Positions 4,800 through 42,346 of a stretch of DNA of 42,418 bases are shown here, in pieces. This DNA comes from a virus. The stretch covers positions 1 to 42,418 of the IMG/VR virus record IMGVR_UViG_3300045988_136292; one strand, given 5' to 3'. How positions within the stretch are numbered: position 1 is the stretch's first letter; each line of letters starts with the position of its first letter. A program made the translations under genes and the position numbers. The notes under the pieces were generated by a model. That model worked only from the letters and a program-made list of their open reading frames with translations. It was not told where the DNA came from and made no database searches.

Positions 4800-4930
4800 C
4801 GGACATCAACGATGTTAGTCGCACTTCGGTGCGTGGATTGAAACGACATTAGAAATGTCATTGTGACTTGCTCACAAATTAGTATTTTCTATGCAGCCAC
4901 TGTATAGTGAAGAGGCGGAGAAATCCGCCT
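4800..4930 (+). ncRNA. Candidate structured small RNA, antisense to the surrounding gene direction
   Basis: 230-bp ORF-free gap. Three short hairpins precede a strong + strand terminator: ACATC/GATGT, CGCAC-TTCG-GTGCG and GACAT/ATGTC. An imperfect Bacteroides-type promoter has TTTG at 4762-4765 and CACCTTTG at 4789-4796. Confidence 0.3.
4901..4930 (+). terminator. Strong intrinsic terminator (9-bp stem AGAGGCGGA / TCCGCCTCT, GAAA loop, then G plus T7)
   Basis: Read directly. The T7 run follows the hairpin only on the + strand. Confidence 0.7.
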
Positions 4931-4964
4931 CTGTTTTTTTATTCCCTTACTACTTTTATGCTAA

Positions 4965-5183
4965 TTAGTAGATAACAGCCTTTATCTTCATGTCAGTTAT
5001 ACAAACACTCTCTTGTCTCTGCACGGAATAGTAAGTAACGTGATTGTTCGATACTTCAAACATCGGATAAATCGAATCGGGATCGTCTTTAATTCCTTCA
5101 ACCGTGAATTTAACTATACCTTGCTTTGCTGCCTGTTTGAATGCTCTGCGAAAATCTGCATCTAATGAATTGAAAGTTTTCAT
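4965..5183 (-). CDS. Hypothetical protein (72 aa)
   Basis: Clean ORF with no recognisable motif. Confidence 0.55.
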   Translation of the reverse strand: MKTFNSLDADFRRAFKQAAKQGIVKFTVEGIKDDPDSIYPMFEVSNNHVTYYSVQRQESVCITDMKIKAVIY

Positions 5184-5227
5184 AATCTTGATACTGAATT
5201 AATCTGTTGTCACCAGCTTTATATTTA

Positions 5228-5503
5228 TTACCAAAAAATTTCTTCAACCTCAAATTCTGCCTTCTCTTCCCAATCAAAAAAATCTAAATTCTGTTCATCC
5301 TCTTCTGTCAAGTAGTAATATGCGCGTATCCTATAGCCATCAATATCAATAGGGGCTTCAGCCCACTCTTTTAAACCTACATGTTGCGGTTCAAACGCCG
5401 GATAAATATATCTGCTTGTAGGTTCTGCGCCAGTAGATATAGCTTTATCAGCTATTTCTTCACCAAATCTCTCTACTATTTCTTGATATGTGTAACTTTT
5501 CAT
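5228..5503 (-). CDS. Small, highly acidic hypothetical protein (91 aa)
   Basis: About 25 percent Asp+Glu. The C-terminus is TEEDEQNLDFFDWEEKAEFEVEEIFW. Confidence 0.55.
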   Translation of the reverse strand: MKSYTYQEIVERFGEEIADKAISTGAEPTSRYIYPAFEPQHVGLKEWAEAPIDIDGYRIRAYYYLTEEDEQNLDFFDWEEKAEFEVEEIFW

Positions 5504-5540
5504 AATTGTATGTTTTGTTTGTTATTACTTGTTGTTTTAT

Positions 5541-5612
5541 TATCACAGTGCAAATATACTACATTGTGATATAACAGCAAAACAAATCACAATATATTTT
5601 CTTGTATTGTGT
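5541..5612. promoter_or_regulatory. Cluster of ATCACA(A/G)T half-sites, including inverted pair TATCACAGTG..CATTGTGATA
   Basis: Half-sites at 5541-5550, 5562-5571 and 5585-5595, plus a degenerate one at 5606-5612. All lie just upstream of CDS 5228-5503. Confidence 0.3.
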
Positions 5613-5968
5613 AATATTTAACATTTAAATACAAAATAAAGAACGACCGCCAGCGAAAAGCACAGCAGCCGTTCAATCCACGCCCTACTCTCTATCCCAT
5701 TTTCCCGAGAAGACAATAGCAAAGATATCAATTCTGAAACGAAATACAAAAAGAAAACTATATTAATTAGTTATGAGGAGCCAATTTTGAAACAAAAACC
5801 AATCTTCTTAAAAAATTGCCATTAATGCAATATTTTTTACTTGCAAGATAAATGAAGAGAATTAATAGAACGGCAAGACTGGCGAGTTTGTATATTTATT
5901 GACATGAAACGAATGTTGTGGAATGGGATCGGAAAAACAAGTATAAAACAGATAGCTTTTATAGGTTT

Positions 5969-6481
5969 CTACTGCCTGAGATATTTTTCCGGGGATTTTT
6001 GAGATTTTATTTGATTTTGTTTTACATTTCTACGTTTAGAATACTTCTGGTTAGCCCTTGTCAGATCCTTGATGATTGTTTCATCAAACACTTCCGAATA
6101 TATCTCTGTTGTCTTGACCGATGTATGCCCCAAGAGTTTTTGGACGGTGGTTATCGGAACGCCTTGATGTACCAACAGAGTAGCACAAGTGTGACGACTT
6201 GTATGGTAGGTGAACTTCTTGTTAATACGCGCCATCCTTCCCAATTTCTGCAATGTCCGATTAGTGTCCGAATTGCAACCTAATGCAGCCAGTTGTTCGA
6301 TGCTGTCGTACTTCCGCATTATGCCCAGTGCCTTTCCGTTAAACAGCAGATATAGCGGAATATTGAGTTTTACGCCTGTTTTGATGCTATTCATAACTAG
6401 CCATTCCTTTCCGTCAACTGTTACGAGATTTTTATAAGTCAATTGTTTAAAATCAGAGAATCTCAATCCGCAATCAACCAA
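5969..6481 (-). pseudogene. Tyrosine recombinase fragment (catalytic domain only; N-terminal arm and core-binding domains missing)
   Basis: The frame opens right after a TAA, 6 codons before the catalytic Arg (CGLRFSD). Retains HTSRHTCAT (HxxR) and LLGHTSVKTTEIY (H..Y). The only start available is a TTG. Confidence 0.7.
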
Positions 6482-7348
6482 TTATCAAGACTGCAATTAT
6501 GGTTTGAAAAATTAGGAATACAAAATGTTACTTATGGAATAGTAATGAGAGCTGGAGGTAGTTTACAGCAGCATTTAGACAGTATTATTAATGATGAGCC
6601 TTACGATGAAAATTCAGCATTTAGAATTTATAGGAATGTAAATGGGGAAACTACATACATACCTAATGTAGATCCAACTGACAGGAGCGGAAATACAACA
6701 ACAAACAGTCAAATAAAATTGTCGGATTGTTTGCAATTCGCGGATTGGGATGTAATAACATTCCAACAAGCAAGCTGGGTAAGTGGTAAATGGGAAACAA
6801 TCGAACCGTATTTGCCTTCTTTGATCAAATATGCGCGTTACTATTGTCCTAATAGTGGTGTAAAGATTGGTTGGCAAATGACTTGGGCGTATGCAAAAGG
6901 GTATGGTGGATTATCTTCTTACAATAATTCACAGGAAGAAATGTTCAATGGAATTGTTCAGTGTGCAAAAAATGTATGTTCTTATTACGGAATAGATTTA
7001 ATTGTTCCTAATGGAGTTGTAGTACAGAATTTAAGAAATGTGCCTGAATCTTTTTGGGGTAGTGACTTAATTTCAATTAAAGGAGCGGAACAATGGACTT
7101 CGGAAACTCCTGCATCTGATTTTACCGATGATGGTTTGCATCCTAATAATATTGCGGAATATTGTACATCAGCAGCATTTATAATGGTTATTTATGGTGC
7201 ATGTTACAATAAATCAATAAGAGGTATAGATTTGGTATTGGATAATATTAGTGGTAATTATGCCAAAATAGCTAGACAATGTGTTTTAAAATCAATTGGA
7301 GATAGATTTAACAAGTCTGACATTGATGTTAGCAAAATTTTAGAATAG
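6443..7348 (+). CDS. SGNH-type hydrolase (DUF4886-like), 5'-truncated with no signal peptide or canonical start
   Basis: Block V is DDGLHPN and GGSLQQH resembles the family. The frame opens at 6401 without an ATG (TTG at 6443, first ATG at 6545). Overlaps the integrase fragment on the opposite strand. Confidence 0.5.
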   Translation: MFKIRESQSAINQLSRLQLWFEKLGIQNVTYGIVMRAGGSLQQHLDSIINDEPYDENSAFRIYRNVNGETTYIPNVDPTDRSGNTTTNSQIKLSDCLQFADWDVITFQQASWVSGKWETIEPYLPSLIKYARYYCPNSGVKIGWQMTWAYAKGYGGLSSYNNSQEEMFNGIVQCAKNVCSYYGIDLIVPNGVVVQNLRNVPESFWGSDLISIKGAEQWTSETPASDFTDDGLHPNNIAEYCTSAAFIMVIYGACYNKSIRGIDLVLDNISGNYAKIARQCVLKSIGDRFNKSDIDVSKILE

Positions 7349-7471
7349 TAGAGTAACTAGAAAAGTTATCAGTAACACTCAAAACATATAATATGATCCG
7401 AGACCTAATCATCAGAATAATGATCCATCTGTCCGTAGAAGTACACCCGGATGCGGAATGGTTTTAAGCAT

Positions 7472-7500
7472 AAGGGCTGACCACACCAAGATCAGCCCTT
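7472..7500. terminator. 9-bp-stem hairpin AAGGGCTGA/TCAGCCCTT between convergent genes
   Basis: Read directly. No clear T-run on either strand. Confidence 0.35.
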
Positions 7501-7520
7501 ACATCATAGTTGTCGATGGG

Positions 7521-9623
7521 TTACTTTACAATATTTGATTGTTTTTTGGGGAGCCAGCCTAATGATAACAATCTTTCAAAAACAATATGCGCAACAACTG
7601 TATAGCCAATCGAATTCCAATGTATACTATCATTCAAGAGACCATTTTTATTAATCGCACCAGCGTCTACAACATTCCAAGATGTAGACGGAGTTCCTTC
7701 ATTCATTAGTCCTAATTTAATTGCAATAGCTACCCCTCTTGTACTCATTTCATGATATAAATTAATATATGCGCTCCCAAAAGCTTCCTGATATTCATTT
7801 TCTCCCTTTTCCGTTCTTGATATGGCTGTTGAAATAAATAAATTCTTTTTACTATTGGCAAATGTCATGGATTGTTTTAAATGACCAATTCTTTTTTCTG
7901 AATATCCGCTAATCTTACCGTCATTTTGTCCTGTGTAAAAGATATTAATATAAGAGATTCCTGATAATCTAGCACCATAAGTAAGAATATTACTACCTGC
8001 TTTAATCTCGACAGCTTCACCATTGCTATTTATCTTCTCAATTTTTGGTCCTGTGCGTAAATTGAAAAATTCTCCATTTATCATTACTGGATTAATAACC
8101 GAACTATCATCTCCATTGTATGAAACGCTAAACCAGTCTGAACCATTTTCTCCCATAGATATGGTTCTAATACTGCATTCTACTCCTCCACTTACTGGTA
8201 CAGTAACATCATTTTTTAGAAACGCTGAAAGTCCTCCTTGTCTTGCCAATATTCCGGGAGTTGTATCACCTTGGACACCACAATTAATCACTTTATATTG
8301 TTCTGTAATATCATTATTTTCATCTATCAGCTCTTGCAAAACTTTAGGATATGTAATACCATTTCCTCCCTGACCGTATGTCAAAGAATCCCCCCAAGCG
8401 AGAATTATATTTATCGGCATCAGATAATCCTCAATATTTTGCTTCATTACATCAACATAATTATATTCTTCCCCGTCGTCAGCTTCTACTTTAATATCCT
8501 TCATTGTACTTCCGACTACATACAATTCTGTTGCCGTATTTTTATTATCGTATTCAAAAATATAAGGGGTAGGAAAAACAGAAGGAATACCTTTCTCCAC
8601 TACCATTCCATCTTTTTTAAATACAAATTGCAGCCATAAATCATTTGCATTGGGAGTACTTGTACATTCAATCCTAATTTTCTTTTTGTCGGTAATACTA
8701 TATTTGTTTAGCACTTTGCCTGCCGAATGTTCAACCACATTTCCGCTTGAATTTATAAGCCACCCATTTTTTGTTTCTGTATAATCTAAATTAATCAGTT
8801 TATAACTGATCAATGATTCAGATAAATCGTCAACTTTATTGGATAATTCATCAATTCTTTGAGTTTCGACAACCAAATCTCTTAGTTCGTCGGATAGTGA
8901 TTTATTAACACTTACAACTGATACTGTAGAACCTCTCTGAACGTATATCTTGGATGTTTGTGGTTGCAATTCTAACTTATAATCAACCAACGGTATTATA
9001 CTTCCTTTCGCCGGAATATTATTGATTATTGTATCATTTTCATCCAATTCCCATATAATAGACCATGGATTTGCAGCAACTGTGCCATTTCTTGTATTAA
9101 TTGTTACATTTCCATAATTGATTACATCATAAATATCATAATAGTACCCGGAATTATCAGCTATTGCATTATCTGTCTTAATTATACCTTTCCGACTCTC
9201 TGTCGGATGTATCTGTACAATATCGCCTGTATATTGTATGCCTTTGACCGCAGATAAAGCTTTATTAGTCAATAGAGTTAATTCTTCTTTATCTCTAATA
9301 TTTAATAAATTTATGAGCGAATTGTCATCCGAATCTCTAAGATACAATGTCTCATTATATATATATAATATACCCAGTGGAGTATATATAACCCAACTTC
9401 TCCCATTGTAAATAAACCAAGAGTTATCTGTATTTCTAAAAAAAATATCTCCTAATTCAGACCCACTTGGAGTGGTTGACTGTATATATTTAATAGGTAA
9501 TATTTCCAATTCGGATATTTCCGTAGCCAGACTTTTGCGGCTGATCGGGTTAACCACCGCATCATAAATAGTAGCCGGGTAAATGGTTTGTCCGCCCTTC
9601 GTCAGTTTATGCATTTTTGCCAT
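7521..9623 (-). CDS. Tail fibre / receptor-binding protein with C-terminal SGNH (GDSL) esterase domain
   Basis: 700 aa. All four SGNH blocks are present: AWGDSLTYG, NCGVQGDTT, YTGQNDG and NDSIHWN. It is the last gene of the tail module. Confidence 0.7.
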   Translation of the reverse strand: MAKMHKLTKGGQTIYPATIYDAVVNPISRKSLATEISELEILPIKYIQSTTPSGSELGDIFFRNTDNSWFIYNGRSWVIYTPLGILYIYNETLYLRDSDDNSLINLLNIRDKEELTLLTNKALSAVKGIQYTGDIVQIHPTESRKGIIKTDNAIADNSGYYYDIYDVINYGNVTINTRNGTVAANPWSIIWELDENDTIINNIPAKGSIIPLVDYKLELQPQTSKIYVQRGSTVSVVSVNKSLSDELRDLVVETQRIDELSNKVDDLSESLISYKLINLDYTETKNGWLINSSGNVVEHSAGKVLNKYSITDKKKIRIECTSTPNANDLWLQFVFKKDGMVVEKGIPSVFPTPYIFEYDNKNTATELYVVGSTMKDIKVEADDGEEYNYVDVMKQNIEDYLMPINIILAWGDSLTYGQGGNGITYPKVLQELIDENNDITEQYKVINCGVQGDTTPGILARQGGLSAFLKNDVTVPVSGGVECSIRTISMGENGSDWFSVSYNGDDSSVINPVMINGEFFNLRTGPKIEKINSNGEAVEIKAGSNILTYGARLSGISYINIFYTGQNDGKISGYSEKRIGHLKQSMTFANSKKNLFISTAISRTEKGENEYQEAFGSAYINLYHEMSTRGVAIAIKLGLMNEGTPSTSWNVVDAGAINKNGLLNDSIHWNSIGYTVVAHIVFERLLSLGWLPKKQSNIVK

Positions 9624-35983: not shown

Positions 35984-36117
35984 TGGGAGCTACGGGAATT
36001 GAACCCGTGACCTATGGTTTTGCCGGCCTGTATCATGGAACACACAAAAACAAAATAAAATAGATTAATTACCCCTGACCGTTAACTGCCATCGCTCTGC
36101 CACTGAGCTAAGCCCCC
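35984..36117 (-). tRNA. tRNA-like gene with a ~60-70-nt AT-rich insertion in the anticodon/variable region (non-canonical, possibly a pseudogene)
   Basis: The acceptor stem GGGGGCT/AGCTCCC pairs 7 of 7, with one G-U pair. Canonical D-arm GCTC-AGTGGCA-GAGC and T-arm ACGGG-TTCAATT-CCCGT. Total length is 134 nt and the anticodon arm does not close canonically. Confidence 0.45.
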
Positions 36118-37793: not shown

Positions 37794-37900
37794 ATCCTCT
37801 AAAAGCAAAAGCCCTTGCCGTTCTCAATCTAGTGTGGTGTTGATTGGTACTAAGCAAGAGCTTTATTTTGATATCCTAAATAACTTACGGTAAACACCAC

Positions 37901-38125
37901 TAAACCGTATCGTCTAATTTTTAATTCATTTGTAGGATATTAAAATGGAAGTCACTATATTTGCCGCTGGAACAATTTTGGTGCGAACAAAATCACGGTT
38001 TATGTCGTGACAGCCATTTTTATATCCGTTTGCAACCGTTTTTTTATTGGTTACGGATGCAAAGATAAACGGTTTACCATTCAATAACAAGCTAAACCGT
38101 TTAAAAATACAAGTTAGACCGTTAT
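37901..38125. promoter_or_regulatory. Operator array: 5-6 copies of TAAACCGT(T/G)T in both orientations within the divergent switch region
   Basis: Copies at 37901-37910 (+), 37994-38003 (-), 38033-38040 (degenerate), 38066-38076 (-), 38093-38103 (+) and 38115-38125 (TAGACCGTTAT). A TATCTTTG -7-type box lies on the - strand at 38060-38067. Confidence 0.45.
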
Positions 38126-38151
38126 TTAGAAAATGTTTTAAATAATATATT

Positions 38152-38556
38152 ATGGAAACAACTGTAAATGAAAGAATTGCTCAAATTATATCTCAATGTG
38201 GATATAAAAGTAAAAGATCTTTTGCAGAAAAGATAGGCGTTGCACAGACATCACTTAACGATATATTAAGAGGTGCAGAGCCAAAATATTCAACATTATA
38301 TAAAATTTTGGAAGCTGAACCGCTCATTTCCGCCGAATGGCTACTCCGTGGAAAAGGAGAAATGCTTATAGCCTCATCGCCAAATGAGAAAAAGGAGGAA
38401 GAAGCCCATGCAGAAAGCCTCTTCCGAAACGTATTGGTTGAATTTATGAGTATGGTTAACAAGAGGCTGAAAAGTATAGACAATAATACTCAATCGTCAG
38501 TAGACAAGTTAGAGGGAATTACAGACCTACTTACAGAATTAAGAAAAACAGCTTAA
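38152..38556 (+). CDS. XRE-family HTH repressor (CI-like)
   Basis: IAQIISQCGYKSKRSFAEKIGVAQTSLNDILRG..AEWLLRGKGEM. Divergent from the early operon. Confidence 0.75.
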   Translation: METTVNERIAQIISQCGYKSKRSFAEKIGVAQTSLNDILRGAEPKYSTLYKILEAEPLISAEWLLRGKGEMLIASSPNEKKEEEAHAESLFRNVLVEFMSMVNKRLKSIDNNTQSSVDKLEGITDLLTELRKTA

Positions 38557-38615: not shown

Positions 38616-38798
38616 ATGATGAACGTATTTATAGACAAGCTGGAAAGGTTGATGAATGAATTCAAAAATGAATCAGTCAACCCAAATGAAGACGAAGCCA
38701 AAAGGCAAAGTCTTATTCTTATTATATGCAATGGTCATAAAACCCCTAGGAAACATTTCAATTTAAAAGAATATAATCAAAATATCAACTATGAATAA
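38616..38798 (+). CDS. Hypothetical small protein (60 aa)
   Basis: ORF with an 8-nt overlap to the exonuclease gene. Confidence 0.4.
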   Translation: MMNVFIDKLERLMNEFKNESVNPNEDEAKRQSLILIICNGHKTPRKHFNLKEYNQNINYE

Positions 38799-39720
38799 CG
38801 CTAACTTTATCGCTATTGATTTTGAAACTGCTACCCCGAAAAGAATGCCTTGCCAAATTGGGTTAGTTGTAGTTAAAGAAGGAGTTATCGTAAAAAAAAT
38901 CAATGAATTGATACAGCCTCCCCAAAATAAATATTCGGTGTCATGTACTAAAGTTCATGGTATCACTCCTGAACATACCTTAAATTCACCTACATTTGAC
39001 ATTTTATGGGATAAAATTAAGCCCTATTTTGATAAAAACTTTATCGTAGCGCACAACATTGATTTTGATTATGATGTACTCGAAAAAGCATTATCTTATT
39101 ATAATATACAACACCCCATTATAATGGGGTGTGCATGCACTTATCAGCTTTCGGAAACAAACCTCGAGGAAGCATGTTATATAAATAATATTCCGCTACC
39201 GTCTCATCATGATGCTGCCTGCGATGCAGAAGCTTGCGCACGTTTGTTTTTAAAGTATCTTGACGGTGAATTATATGCAATTGACAGATCATCCATGCCA
39301 AAACAAGCAGAAGAACAAACAGAGGAGCAAAAAGCATATAACGAATTCTATTCCAATTTTATCCAAGAACATACACCCCTAACGGGTGATATATTGAAAA
39401 AAGATTTATCTAACGCTGACCCTAACAATCCTTTTTATGATAAAAAGATTGTCATTACAGGAGTATTTACCCAAGAACGAAGTGACCTTGCACTTACTTT
39501 AAAGAATATGGGAGCTGATATAAATACTTCCATTTCAAAAAAAACTGATTTTGTCTTGATTGGAGATGAACCGGGATATAGAAAGATAGAAAAACTAGAC
39601 GAATTAGAACGGAACGGATGTAAAATAACAAGGCTTTACCAAAAAGATTTAGATAAAGTATTAGCAGGTGAATGGGATGAATACACCAAGAACCTCCAAA
39701 TTAAAAGCAATAACAGATGA
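38791..39720 (+). CDS. DEDDh (DnaQ-like) 3'-5' exonuclease fused to a C-terminal BRCT domain
   Basis: ExoI is FIAIDFETAT, ExoII is VAHNIDFDYDVL and ExoIII is HHDAACDAEA (H-x4-D). The BRCT-like segment is KKIVITGVF...SISKKTDFVLIGDEPGYRKIEKLDEL. Confidence 0.8.
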   Translation: MNNANFIAIDFETATPKRMPCQIGLVVVKEGVIVKKINELIQPPQNKYSVSCTKVHGITPEHTLNSPTFDILWDKIKPYFDKNFIVAHNIDFDYDVLEKALSYYNIQHPIIMGCACTYQLSETNLEEACYINNIPLPSHHDAACDAEACARLFLKYLDGELYAIDRSSMPKQAEEQTEEQKAYNEFYSNFIQEHTPLTGDILKKDLSNADPNNPFYDKKIVITGVFTQERSDLALTLKNMGADINTSISKKTDFVLIGDEPGYRKIEKLDELERNGCKITRLYQKDLDKVLAGEWDEYTKNLQIKSNNR

Positions 39721-40484
39721 ACGATTCTCAAACACTTTTCGATTTTGATTCAAAGGATATATTATCAGGGGTGAGAGTTTATTTTTGCGGCAAATTCTCA
39801 CAAAAGACATCCATTCTTGCAGATAAGATGGAAGCAAGAGGAGCTATAACCCGTAGTATCACCGCCAACAAACCTACCCTCCTTGGCTTGTCAAAGGAAA
39901 CATGCGTCATAGTTAAAGGTAAAAACGTTCCCGAAAAGGATATTGCCAAGATACTAACTCTTACTCATGACGGATATCATATACCCGTTATTTCGGAAGC
40001 AGATATTGATGATATACTTAATGGGGTAAAACCGTCCAATTTCCCCGCCCCTATAAAGTCCGTTGATATAAACTTTGATTTCCTATTCAACAGCATAGTA
40101 CCCAAAATCATTCATTTTAACTTTTATGGTTATACACATCCTGTCGGCCAAAAGAACATATTTTTGCATAATATCCGTGGCGATAATTTCTTACTAGAAC
40201 AAAGCCTAGGGAATATAGGTGCTTATTCCTGCTCCTCCTTTGACCCGTATGATGTAGATTATTGCTGGCTTAAAAAAGATACCATAGACTTGCTTAGAGA
40301 TGGTGAAAAAGATGATTTTATAAAGATTATAACTGATTCTTATAATTCATCGTCAAATACAAAATTTACATATAAATTTATCATAGAATCCGAAGCTATC
40401 TATTGGATGGTTTATCGGGCTAAAGAAATAGGAGATGAAGTATCATTAGAATATATAACTAGATATCTTGAAAGCATATATTAA
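39717..40484 (+). CDS. BRCT-like N-terminal domain followed by about 170 aa of unknown function
   Basis: GVRVYFCGKFSQKTSILADKMEARGAI...VIVKGKNVPEKDIAKILTLTHDGYHIPVISEADIDDIL is BRCT-like. 4-nt overlap with the exonuclease gene. Confidence 0.5.
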   Translation: MNDSQTLFDFDSKDILSGVRVYFCGKFSQKTSILADKMEARGAITRSITANKPTLLGLSKETCVIVKGKNVPEKDIAKILTLTHDGYHIPVISEADIDDILNGVKPSNFPAPIKSVDINFDFLFNSIVPKIIHFNFYGYTHPVGQKNIFLHNIRGDNFLLEQSLGNIGAYSCSSFDPYDVDYCWLKKDTIDLLRDGEKDDFIKIITDSYNSSSNTKFTYKFIIESEAIYWMVYRAKEIGDEVSLEYITRYLESIY

Positions 40485-40643
40485 AATAAGCACCAGCATA
40501 TATGCGCATATAAATAATTTCACCTATGTTTTTATAATGGGCAATGATGCTAGTAAAGCAGCATCCGCTAAACGAAATAATAAGTACAATTTAGACAGCT
40601 TTATAAATTGCAAAAACAAAGTACCACCAATTTTGTTTTTTAC

Positions 40644-40651
40644 TATATTTG
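40644..40651 (+). promoter_or_regulatory. Bacteroides-type -7 promoter box TATATTTG (TAnnTTTG)
   Basis: Exact match to the consensus, 18 nt upstream of the ATG at 40669. TTTG at 40632-40635 is closer than the usual -33 spacing. Confidence 0.4.
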
Positions 40652-40668
40652 CAAGGTAATGACAGTTT

Positions 40669-40914
40669 ATGATGGGTAATTACAGTAAAAAACAGGAAGA
40701 AAAGAATGAAAACAAGGAAAAGAATAAAACAAGACGAGAAAAACTCGCAACGTATTTCTTTGACTTGTCCAAATTGGTATTTGCCGCACTTGTATTAGGC
40801 GGTATAACTCCTTTATTTACCAATACCGCAAATAAAATAAATTGGGCAACAATTGTATTAGGTGTTTTCTCCACTTATATTTTTGCCAATTTTGCAAACA
40901 GAATTTTAAAATAA
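40669..40914 (+). CDS. Small membrane protein (81 aa; Lys/Glu-rich N-terminus, two TM segments)
   Basis: TM segments are LVFAALVLGGITPLF and WATIVLGVFSTYIFANF. Confidence 0.6.
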   Translation: MMGNYSKKQEEKNENKEKNKTRREKLATYFFDLSKLVFAALVLGGITPLFTNTANKINWATIVLGVFSTYIFANFANRILK

Positions 40915-40920
40915 AATAAT

Positions 40921-41025
40921 ATGGATACATTGACTATTATCTTTTTAATGACCAGTATCATAGGCTCAGCACTCGTTATCTGGTCACATACGAAAAGCGG
41001 CAAAAAATGGCTTAGAGATTTATAA
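40921..41025 (+). CDS. Single-TM peptide (34 aa; MDTLTIIFLMTSIIGSALVIWSHTKSGKKWLRDL)
   Basis: Translated by hand, since it is below the ORF-track cutoff. Starts 7 nt after the previous stop and is followed by a terminator. Confidence 0.4.
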   Translation: MDTLTIIFLMTSIIGSALVIWSHTKSGKKWLRDL

Positions 41026-41030
41026 CAATA

Positions 41031-41065
41031 ATGGCAGGGGGTATGATTCCTGCCATATTTTTTTC
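41031..41065 (+). terminator. Intrinsic terminator (ATGGCAGG / CCTGCCAT stem) followed by ATTTTTTT
   Basis: Read directly. Confidence 0.7.
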
Positions 41066-41083
41066 ATACCAAACTTAAAACTT

Positions 41084-42346
41084 ATGAACATCAAACGAAA
41101 CTGCATCTTTCTTCTGGACAAGGAGAAAGACAAACCTGACTCCAAGCTCCGCTACAGGATCAAGTGGGACGGGAATACCGTAGCCTTTAATGTGGGCTAC
41201 CGGGTGGACAATAACAAATGGGTAGCCGAAGCCCAGAGATGCAAACCAAACACCACTCATGGAAAGAAAAAAATCTCGGCAGCAACTATCAATTCGGAGA
41301 TAAACCGTCTTGAAGAAATCGTCAACGACACCTTCTTCTTCTTCGAGCAGACAGGACAAATACCCACTTCTCTCGAATTCCGGGACGAAGTGAACAAAAG
41401 GAATGGGAAAATCGTAGAAAAGGAGAAAAAAACAATCTTCGATTACTACCAACAATTCATCATTGAACAAGGTAAGGAAAACAGTTGGTCAGAGAACACA
41501 TACAAGAGACACAAGACCACAATGAACCACCTAAAGAAATTCGCACCCGATCTTACTTTCGCAGACCTTACCCATGAAGGACTATCCCGTCTTGTGGATT
41601 ACTTTATGAGCATAGAAGTGGACAATGAAACCGGGATGAAGAATTACACAGCGAAGAAGTATATCAATCTGGCAAAATGGTTCTTGAAATGGGCATCAGA
41701 AAAAGGATACAACAAAGAACTTTCATTCGTCACTTTCAAGGAGAAGCTAAAGACCATTCCGGCAAAGGTGATATTCCTTGAATGGAATGAACTCATGAGT
41801 GTATATAATGCCACATTCCCGAACGAGCCTCATCTCGAACTAGCGAAGGATGTGTTCTGTTTCCAATGCTTCACCTCGCTACGCTATTCTGATGTAAAAA
41901 ACCTCAAGAAAGCCGACATCTATGACGGATATATTACCATCACTACCATTAAGACGGACGAGCCGTTAAAAATCGAACTGAACAAATATTCTAAGGCCAT
42001 ACTGGAGAAATACAAGGGCATAGAAGGGATATACGCGCTGCCTGTGCCGGTCAACCAAAGGATGAACAAATACATCAAAGAAATATGCAAAGCCTGTGAG
42101 ATTAACGAGCCTATATGCAGAACATATTATAAGGGAGCAGAAAGGATAGACGAAATTCATCCCAAATACAAACTGATAGGAACCCATTGCGGCAGAAAGA
42201 CCTTTATCTGCAACGCACTCATGCTGGGCATAGCCCCCAATATCGTAATGAAATGGACAGGTCACAAGGACTACAAGTCCATGAAACCATATATTGACAT
42301 AGCGGACAAGGCAAAAGAAGAAGCCATGAACCTTTTTAACCGTTAA
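41084..42346 (+). CDS. int: Tyrosine integrase (Bacteroides phage/CTn type with an N-terminal arm-binding domain)
   Basis: 420 aa. Has the catalytic Arg in TSLRYSDVKNL, the HxxR motif in GTHCGRKTF and the H..Y motif in WTGHKDYKSMKPYIDI. Adjacent to the right terminal repeat. Confidence 0.9.
   Translation: MNIKRNCIFLLDKEKDKPDSKLRYRIKWDGNTVAFNVGYRVDNNKWVAEAQRCKPNTTHGKKKISAATINSEINRLEEIVNDTFFFFEQTGQIPTSLEFRDEVNKRNGKIVEKEKKTIFDYYQQFIIEQGKENSWSENTYKRHKTTMNHLKKFAPDLTFADLTHEGLSRLVDYFMSIEVDNETGMKNYTAKKYINLAKWFLKWASEKGYNKELSFVTFKEKLKTIPAKVIFLEWNELMSVYNATFPNEPHLELAKDVFCFQCFTSLRYSDVKNLKKADIYDGYITITTIKTDEPLKIELNKYSKAILEKYKGIEGIYALPVPVNQRMNKYIKEICKACEINEPICRTYYKGAERIDEIHPKYKLIGTHCGRKTFICNALMLGIAPNIVMKWTGHKDYKSMKPYIDIADKAKEEAMNLFNR

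Follow-up and report, generated by a model that had tools for sequence, protein, structure and literature searches.

Does the stretch between the repressor and the integrase of a Bacteroidota prophage carry a defence system, and if so, which of its genes belong to it? The question is raised by the IMG/VR virus record IMGVR_UViG_3300045988_136292, whose 42,418 nucleotides (positions 1 to 42,418) are referred to as the window. With its TerL, portal, capsid and NinG genes and an integrase harbouring Phage_int_SAM_5 and Arm-DNA-bind_5 domains, the window represents a temperate siphovirus-type prophage of the Bacteroidota type, in which genes lie on the minus strand nearly throughout, the exception being a plus-strand block at the right end. 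An initial annotation, made from the letters alone, had described three open reading frames in that block (ORF1 to ORF3) as an operon encoding an exonuclease-BRCT protein and a second BRCT protein, and had proposed it to be a lysogen-expressed defence system. Our analysis indicates that ORF2 and ORF3 very probably constitute a dispensable two-gene accessory cassette that forms one functional unit. The pair is a mobile accessory nuclease module, probably expressed in the lysogen, and we assign a probability of about one half to its being a prophage-borne immunity nuclease with an anti-phage outcome.

The three ORFs are co-oriented and linked as first described, ORF1 and ORF2 by an 8-nt overlap (ATGAATAA) and ORF2 and ORF3 by a 4-nt overlap (ATGA), and they lie in the lysogeny module in the orientation of the repressor and the integrase, which is a cargo position. 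The notion of a three-gene unit did not survive comparison with relatives. Homologues of ORF1 with 71-96% identity were present in 15 further IMG/VR contigs of the same lineage, mostly with integrases 97-99% identical to that of the window; ORF1 directly followed the repressor in all 15, and ORF2 and ORF3 were found in none. In blastn alignments with these relatives, the window is homologous up to 38782-38810 and again from 40483-40485, corresponding to the start of ORF2 and the stop codon of ORF3, and the last codons of ORF1 overlap the left junction. ORF1 was therefore rejected as a third component. The GC content of the cassette is 0.346, as against 0.39-0.40 for the phage. In one relative (L043) the repressor is 100% identical, the early genes are the same and the cassette is absent, which shows that both the phage life cycle and the switch can do without the cassette.

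Among the relatives (L031-L047) the interval between ORF1 and the integrase gene, 38799-41083 in the window, is a hotspot of mix-and-match cargo. It holds lipoproteins of 131, 135, 170 or 337 aa, an 80-aa transmembrane protein, DUF6722, or a pair of 128 and 80 aa whose second member is weakly HicA-like, while the integrase stays 97-99% identical across different cargo. The DUF6722 gene of the window is likewise present or absent in relatives independently of ORF2 and ORF3. Close relatives were not found among isolate phage genomes, either by megablast of the region or by tblastn of ORF3.

ORF2 and ORF3 are real genes rather than chance ORFs, since both belong to families of homologues (843 matches for ORF2 and 48 clusters at 90% identity for ORF3). 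By length the homologues of ORF2 form two classes, a short one of about 290-310 aa and a long one of about 430-540 aa. The description of ORF2 as a DEDDh exonuclease with a BRCT domain is well founded. Its N-terminal domain matches Pfam RNase_T (PF00929) at E 1.6e-15 and 58.5 bits against a cutoff of 24, and the residues of the motifs named initially, D10 and E12 (DFET), H88, N89 and D93 (HNIDFD) and H140 and D145 (H-x4-D), each occur in at least 95% of the 120 family members compared. Judged by these residues, ORF2 is a member of the DEDDh (DnaQ-like) 3′-5′ exonuclease superfamily with an intact active site, and exonuclease activity is predicted. Further downstream, residues 212-266 match Pfam BRCT (PF00533; E 4.5e-9, 36.9 bits against a cutoff of 21.3) and NCBIfam LigA models cover residues 192-293 (E ~1e-10). 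Among 120 homologues T223, G224, R230 and G241 are conserved in at least 95%, and K250 and T252 in 85-95%, which is the T-G...R...K-x-T pattern typical of LigA-type BRCTs. D205 and F215 of the linker region reach at least 95% in the same set, and the strongly conserved linear motif that leads into the BRCT domain is not a clamp-binding motif. The alignment indicates that the active site and the BRCT residues of ORF2 are under strong conservation.

Two further proteins, P0050 (481 aa) and P0051 (507 aa), consist of ORF2 (99% and 96% identical, respectively) fused in-frame to the C-terminal half of the integrase, and are variants of 38791-42346 in the window. ORF3, DUF6722 and the N-terminus of the integrase are missing from both, as would be expected of natural deletion variants of this same prophage or of chimeras that arose in assembly.

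ORF3 belongs to a small family of full-length homologues that are 42-98% identical, about 250-265 aa long and mostly from Bacteroides; a profile search of 1.8 billion representatives recovered only 187 members. The whole protein had no match in Pfam, PHROGs, NCBIfam or PADLOC. Its opening BRCT-like module, noted initially, was borne out by structure prediction. The AlphaFold (AF2) model built on the family alignment reached a mean confidence (pLDDT) of 90.1 and a predicted TM-score (pTM) of 0.81, and the top matches in a Foldseek search of the PDB were BRCT only, the best being 4bmc (BRCT1,2 of Rad4; E 9e-5, probability 1.0). The family profile also matched the BRCT domain of Thermus LigA (1l7b) at E 0.023, and it is on these two results that the N-terminal 100 or so residues are assigned as BRCT. 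In addition, two family members carry a precomputed PF00533 assignment, and tblastn with the BRCT domain of ORF2 detects the N-termini of ORF3 homologues at 1e-5 to 1e-6. The best structural matches are tandem BRCT pairs (4bmc, 9cq3_f), including the LigIV tandem BRCT in non-homologous end joining complexes. The eukaryotic tandem-BRCT proteins Rad4/TopBP1, DNA ligase IV and 53BP1 nevertheless reach whole-protein TM-scores of only about 0.25 against ORF3, and the geometry between its domains is therefore unlike that of canonical tandem BRCTs. The NAD-dependent ligase, RFC1 and PARP1 grouped in the same comparison set have single BRCTs.

The rest of ORF3, described initially as about 170 aa without a recognised motif, forms domain X of 144 aa. 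It has no match in Pfam, PHROGs, NCBIfam, PADLOC or the PDB sequences. A fold can nevertheless be proposed. The model of X alone has a pLDDT of 94.8; its best Foldseek match in the PDB is not significant (E 0.12), and BRCT domains make up about half of its 50 best matches, among them the helix-extended H-BRCTs of Dbf4 and Sir4. Against BFVD, a library of viral structures, it independently matches phage BRCT proteins and NAD-ligase BRCTs (E 0.04-0.06, probability 0.96-0.97, root-mean-square deviation 3-4 Å over about 90 residues). An hhalign comparison of X with the N-terminal BRCT was not significant (probability 1.4%). Conserved polar residues in the family alignment include K114, N166, K198, D199, Y209, N210, R234 and D240. 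As modelled, X appears to be a new, undescribed family built around a BRCT-like alpha/beta core, to which an N-terminal extension and an extra C-terminal helix are added; the BRCT assignment is tentative. The model suggests that X is probably not an enzymatic effector but a third BRCT-like module that has diverged very far.

A joint function of ORF2 and ORF3 is indicated by proteins in which their domains are joined. In P0133 they form a single Exo-BRCT-X chain (ORF3 residues 42-254 align to residues 220-426 with 32% identity, E 7e-22), P0062 and P0081 are Exo-BRCT-BRCT-X (ORF3 18-255 aligned to P0062 310-536, E 4e-26), and P0218 has the opposite order, BRCT-X-Exo-BRCT. The multiple independent gene fusions and their split equivalents show that the two genes form one functional unit. 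An ORF2 homologue was adjacent or fused in every locus recovered through ORF3 homology, and the module occurs in prophage lysogeny arms, phage accessory regions and what looks like a chromosomal islet. Exo-BRCT genes without an X partner also exist (L027, L030 and Staphylococcus phages). A cryptic X domain was sought in small proteins beside such genes and was found only in L028, where a stand-alone X of 150 aa (hidden Markov model E 1e-29) lies directly upstream of the Exo-BRCT gene; the 194-aa lipoprotein of L030 and the neighbour in L027 were rejected. A further Bacteroides prophage (L017, 5314-7771) carries two exonuclease genes in tandem (252 and 294 aa) followed by a BRCT-X gene.

BRCT-X is not confined to exonucleases. 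In P0184, P0177 and P0180 it is fused to a DUF2971 domain that matches PADLOC PDC-S31. The attachment of the same BRCT-X to a 3′-5′ exonuclease or to a domain of the DNA ADP-ribosyltransferase (ART) type therefore suggests a sensor with swappable effectors, a pattern typical of conflict systems. Of the sensor and effector pair suggested initially, the pairing is shown by the independent fusions, and the distribution of the two roles is a reasonable inference.

The placement of the module in other genomes was surveyed in about 30 distinct contexts; pattern-based locus scans with the split-form alignment (A1) gave few loci, and the fused-form alignment (A3) worked. In about 14 distinct Bacteroidales prophage contexts the module lies directly downstream of, and co-oriented with, a gene of the HTH (helix-turn-helix) or HTH-S24 repressor family, at the prophage arm and divergent from the early genes. 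Examples are the Bfgi2 prophage of B. fragilis, a locus identified by published primers, and a B. ovatus prophage in which a fused form of 427 aa begins 30 nt after the S24 repressor; further such loci are L021/22, L023/24, L028/29, L059, L060, L074/75 and others. In other Bacteroides prophages the gene directly before the cassette belongs to the same family as the repressor of the window (shared HTH and 'WLL.G.G.M' motif, HMM matches, about 14 loci).

The same placement recurs in temperate phages of S. aureus from two genera, phi12 (L049, 3272-4933) and 23MRA (L079, 2772-4397), where the Exo-BRCT gene begins 16 nt after the S24 cI gene and is co-oriented with int. The Staphylococcus protein is 26% identical over 93% of ORF2, and many further Staphylococcus phages match. 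The labels in the S. aureus records range over DNA ligase, helicase and Pol III epsilon/exonuclease subunit, and are probably mis-annotations of an uncharacterised lysogeny-module gene.

A second group of about 12 contexts, all with fused forms, occurs in unidirectional phage genomes, where the gene is flanked by intergenic gaps of 270-410 nt. Its neighbours are RadC and HicA-toxin genes, with packaging genes just after, and in L078 a DUF2971 gene directly upstream of the fused Exo-BRCT-X gene; BRCT-X was not found within that DUF2971 neighbour. With this company, the contexts were rejected as replication modules. The third group is chromosomal and without prophage. A block of four genes encoding a GHKL HATPase_c protein (216 aa), DUF4325 (96 aa), Exo-BRCT-BRCT-X (536 aa) and an FRG protein (543 aa) occurs in two different neighbourhoods (L019 and L020, each at 4888-9294). 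The FRG protein is PADLOC PDC-S15 (E 3e-95), a PDC-S01 fragment lies nearby, and the block looks like a small mobile defence islet. Another chromosomal copy, of two genes, lies between housekeeping genes. Matches in Vibrio phages were considered as VPhiTon-like and rejected, being partial matches in 78-kb lytic phages. Conservation beside replication genes, to which the initial annotation had pointed as the opposite of a defence role, was not seen: a DnaB, primase or polymerase gene adjoined the module in none of the approximately 30 contexts.

Expression in the lysogen would be in keeping with the regulatory features around the cassette (Table 1). The candidate Bacteroides-type promoter, presumed from its pattern to be the -33/-7 promoter of the lysogenic transcript, is the only plus-strand match in the region, with 5 matches in the window as a whole against 2.4 expected, which makes it a weakly supported candidate; a sigma-70 promoter scan is uninformative for Bacteroides. 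The divergent intergenic region between the repressor and the early genes (37860-38150) holds a cluster of AAACCGTTT / AAACGGTTT repeats (AACCGT/ACGGTT), which are probably operators. The only plus-strand terminator-like site between repressor and integrase is a hairpin at which the lysogenic transcript may end. Just upstream of the DUF6722 gene, at approximately 40646-40653 (plus strand), lies a -7-type box of Bacteroides (TATATTTG), which suggests that this gene has a promoter of its own. The cassette is most likely co-transcribed with the repressor in the lysogen. Transcription of bfp3, which directly follows the gene for the BRCT-X homologue in Bfgi2, takes place in broth culture without induction (PMC2873492), and in S. 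aureus Phi13 lysogens the cI transcript extends into the gene downstream of cI, as seen by Northern blot (PMC9694928).

Table 1. Features of the repressor-integrase region, with positions in the window
Feature	Position	Strand	Basis
Candidate Bacteroides-type promoter TTTG-N23-TAtaTTTG	37929-37963	+	Pattern match, ~190 nt upstream of repressor
Operator-like perfect 11-nt inverted pair TAAACGGTTTA / TAAACCGTTTA	38066-38103 (arms 38066-38076, 38093-38103)		Repeat search
Repressor-like HTH protein, 134 aa, without S24 peptidase domain	38152-38556	+	Pfam HTH_3 E 2.3e-6; PHROG transcriptional repressor matches
ORF1, 60 aa, backbone gene linked to repressor	38616-38798	+	ORF coordinates; homologues in relatives
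Exchangeable two-gene cassette (ORF2 + ORF3)	38791-40484	+	blastn against cassette-less relatives; GC
ORF2, 309 aa	38791-39720	+	ORF coordinates
ORF2 predicted DEDDh 3′-5′ exonuclease domain, residues 7-153 (catalytic D10, E12, D93, H140, D145)	38809-39249	+	Pfam RNase_T
ORF2 linker motif leading into BRCT, residues ~195-211	39373-39423	+	Family consensus GDxLKKDLSxADPxNPFYDKK
ORF2 BRCT domain, LigA type	39424-39660	+	Pfam BRCT, NCBIfam LigA models, conservation
ORF3, 255 aa	39717-40484	+	ORF coordinates
ORF3 N-terminal BRCT, residues ~14-106	39756-40034	+	AF2 model, Foldseek, profile against PDB, tblastn
ORF3 C-terminal X domain, residues 112-255, weakly BRCT-like alpha/beta fold	40050-40481	+	AF2 model, Foldseek
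DUF6722 transmembrane protein, 81 aa, separate cargo gene	40669-40914	+	Pfam DUF6722 E 3e-6; PHROG 23063 E 1e-28
Terminator-like hairpin, 10-bp stem and T-run	41031-41056	+	Consensus scan
Tyrosine integrase, Bacteroidota type, marking the prophage end	41084-42346	+	Pfam Phage_int_SAM_5 E 2e-12; Phage_integrase

Besides the terminal integrase, the window holds two further tyrosine-recombinase genes. One is a full-length XerC/D-like recombinase of 309 aa in the middle of the phage (30841-31770, minus strand), and the other a C-terminal fragment of 170 aa (5969-6481, minus strand) that adjoins a plus-strand DUF4886 gene (6443-7348) in a low-GC patch. Rfam identifies a full-length tRNA at 35984-36117 on the minus strand (51.6 bits, model positions 1-71), with 71 nt at the anticodon-loop region against 9 in the model, corresponding to an insertion or intron of about 62 nt. 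ARAGORN reported zero tRNAs anywhere in the window.

On the basis of these observations one may propose how an immunity nuclease of this kind would work. ORF2 and ORF3, transcribed with the repressor in the lysogen, would act as one machine consisting of a DEDDh exonuclease held by a LigA-type BRCT domain and a subunit made of a BRCT and the BRCT-like X. The natural fusions imply that the two proteins form a complex, which may be held together by BRCT-BRCT contacts. What the LigA-type BRCT and BRCT-X would recognise is some feature in the nucleic acid of an invading or replicating phage, and candidate triggers are 5′-phosphorylated ends, nicks, gaps, or a modified (e.g. ADP-ribosylated) or phosphorylated partner or ligand. 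The BRCT modules would then bring the exonuclease to exposed 3′ ends or set it free to act on them, presumably ends of DNA rather than RNA, and the circular host chromosome and the resident prophage would be spared.

The main rival explanation, which we hold to be unlikely, is a replisome-associated proofreader or repair exonuclease. ORF2 would dock by its BRCT domain at the replicase, nicks or gaps and trim mismatched or damaged 3′ ends, BRCT-X would serve as an adaptor, and either the lysogen or the replicating phage would gain in fidelity or in tolerance of damage. LigA-type BRCTs are parts of replication and repair enzymes. The best NCBIfam sequence matches to ORF2 are named 'Pol III epsilon' and 'DEDDh family exonuclease', and PHROG 192 is a 'DNA polymerase exonuclease subunit'; every NCBIfam score, however, lies far under its curated cutoff (PRK06195, E 3e-41 over residues 5-260, 141.8 against 373; TIGR00573, 52.9 against 71.5; PRK06063, residues 7-122 only, 37.3 against 389). 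Only one protein of the Exo+BRCT architecture has been characterised, mycobacterial DnaQ; it proofreads in the replisome and has a BRCT domain essential for its antimutator role (PMC11348249), and this shared architecture speaks for the proofreader. A beta-clamp-binding motif (QL[SD]LF-type), on the other hand, is absent from ORF2 and not conserved in 118 relatives. The lack of adjacent replication genes and the existence of close relatives of the same phage that do without the cassette also count against a proofreader, and the joining of BRCT-X to a DarT-like ART toxin domain is at odds with a role in fidelity.

It is improbable, in our estimate, that the cassette assists the lysis-lysogeny switch. 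In eukaryotes, BRCT domains are the classic modules of DNA-damage signalling; here they would sense nicks, gaps or ends, and the exonuclease would make or remove single-stranded DNA (ssDNA), thereby influencing how RecA is activated or the repressor inactivated and so adjusting prophage induction. The cI linkage in two phyla would then be accounted for, with Exo-BRCT genes 16-30 nt downstream of cI-type repressors in Bacteroides and Staphylococcus phages, and the repressor of the window, having no S24 autocleavage domain, needs another route of induction. The switch nevertheless works alone in L043, the module is also found away from any repressor, in unidirectional phages and in chromosomal islets by defence candidates, and read-through expression of cargo in lysogens accounts equally well for the position next to cI. 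Highly improbable is a role in counter-defence, in which the exonuclease, targeted by the BRCT domains, would destroy host immune nucleic acids such as retron msDNA, signalling oligonucleotides or cDNA of defence reverse transcriptases. DEDDh enzymes do degrade short oligonucleotides, ssDNA or RNA ends, the gene is phage-borne, and the copies in unidirectional phages lie in a variable accessory region; its orientation with repressor and integrase, by contrast, predicts lysogenic and not early-lytic expression, and both the chromosomal non-phage copies beside candidate defence genes and the fusion of BRCT-X to a toxin-type ART domain fit defence rather than anti-defence.

The reading of the cassette as an immunity nuclease is favoured by its company of candidate or validated defence genes (PDC-S15, PDC-S01, DUF2971/Aristaios-like and weakly HicA-like), known from a small and unsystematic sample in which the neighbours are mostly candidates only. 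Several points weigh against it, besides the mycobacterial precedent. ORF3 matches no PADLOC model, ORF2 and its fused forms match PDC-S48 over the exonuclease only, and the PDC entries are themselves only candidates. The fold assignment of X is weak (Foldseek E 0.03-0.12), and the census rests on a crude ORF caller and a non-random sample of loci. The cargo-slot position is common to many non-defence morons, e.g. the C10 protease in Bfgi2. Finally, the validated members of the TONDO class discussed below act on RNA phages, and RNA phages of Bacteroides are not known.

If the cassette does serve in defence, it would represent a new sensor logic, BRCT recognition coupled to a 3′-5′ exonuclease or alternatively to a DNA ADP-ribosyltransferase, together with a new domain family X. 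It would also account for a gene that routinely receives the wrong label ('DNA polymerase III epsilon/alpha', 'DNA ligase' or 'helicase'), both in prophages of gut Bacteroides and in S. aureus phages of clinical importance (phi12, phiNM3, phiN315 and PVL phages). A broader proposition, which is tentative and rather doubtful at present, is that Exo-BRCT and BRCT-X constitute a widespread, cI-coexpressed prophage immunity nuclease across phyla, in Bacteroidota and, as Exo-BRCT alone, in Bacillota, with the BRCT modules as pathogen sensor. If true, this would be the first immune system of prokaryotes to rely on BRCT domains for recognising DNA ends, nicks or ADP-ribosylated or phosphorylated ligands, BRCT-X would be a portable sensor able to arm a DarT-like ADP-ribosyltransferase too, and the BRCT toolkit of eukaryotic DNA-damage signalling would be tied to an ancestral role in phage conflict. 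If, on the other hand, the cassette proofreads or modulates induction, the prophage would be changing the mutation rate or the damage sensing of its host, of which there are few cases. The slot between ORF1 and the integrase is in any case a compact and well-delimited hotspot that may be mined for superinfection-exclusion and defence genes of Bacteroides, with relevance to phage therapy and microbiome engineering.

How does the cassette compare with known systems? The initial annotation had found no named system to which it corresponds, and the searches agree. In PADLOC, ORF2 matches DEDDh (E 1.7e-23) and PDC-S48 (E 3.3e-27), a single-gene phage-defence candidate whose N-terminal DEDDh domain it shares with the fused homologues (up to E 4e-28); both match profile positions 1-185 only. 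The PDC-S48 profiles have 411 or 512 positions, and the remaining 230-330 or so are unmatched by ORF2, ORF3 and the fused forms. The long fused forms were therefore rejected as PDC-S48, and with different C-terminal modules the cassette is not PDC-S48 proper. Literature searches returned neither a described DEDDh+BRCT defence system nor specifics of PDC-S48. Mycobacterial DnaQ resembles ORF2 in having an N-terminal DEDDh exonuclease and a C-terminal BRCT within about 300 aa; it is, however, a chromosomal housekeeping gene with a clamp-binding motif, whereas ORF2 is mobile cargo, has no such motif and comes with a dedicated BRCT-X partner.

DUF2971 has an ADP-ribosyltransferase fold related to DarT (PMC12522546), and stand-alone DUF2971 constitutes Aristaios, a validated single-gene abortive-infection antiphage gene (PMC11381338). 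The link of Aristaios/DUF2971 (PDC-S31) to the cassette is one of domain swapping and neighbourhood only, as the window encodes no DUF2971 domain. The bacterial ISG20-like DEDDh exonucleases named TONDOs are validated defence genes borne on prophages and other mobile elements (bioRxiv 2026, PMC13344964). They were validated against single-stranded RNA phages and trim RNA 3′ untranslated regions, and their auxiliary domains are reported to be without detectable homology, with BRCT unmentioned; in a split case both parts are required (PMC13344964). Whereas TONDOs act on RNA, the BRCT modules of ORF2 and ORF3 point to recognition of DNA or of a phospho-ligand. Compared by description only, the two share a DEDDh exonuclease, an auxiliary domain that is fused or encoded on an adjacent small ORF, carriage by prophages or mobile elements, and a location near defence genes. 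By this analogy, the TONDO class would be the closest functional analogue of the cassette.

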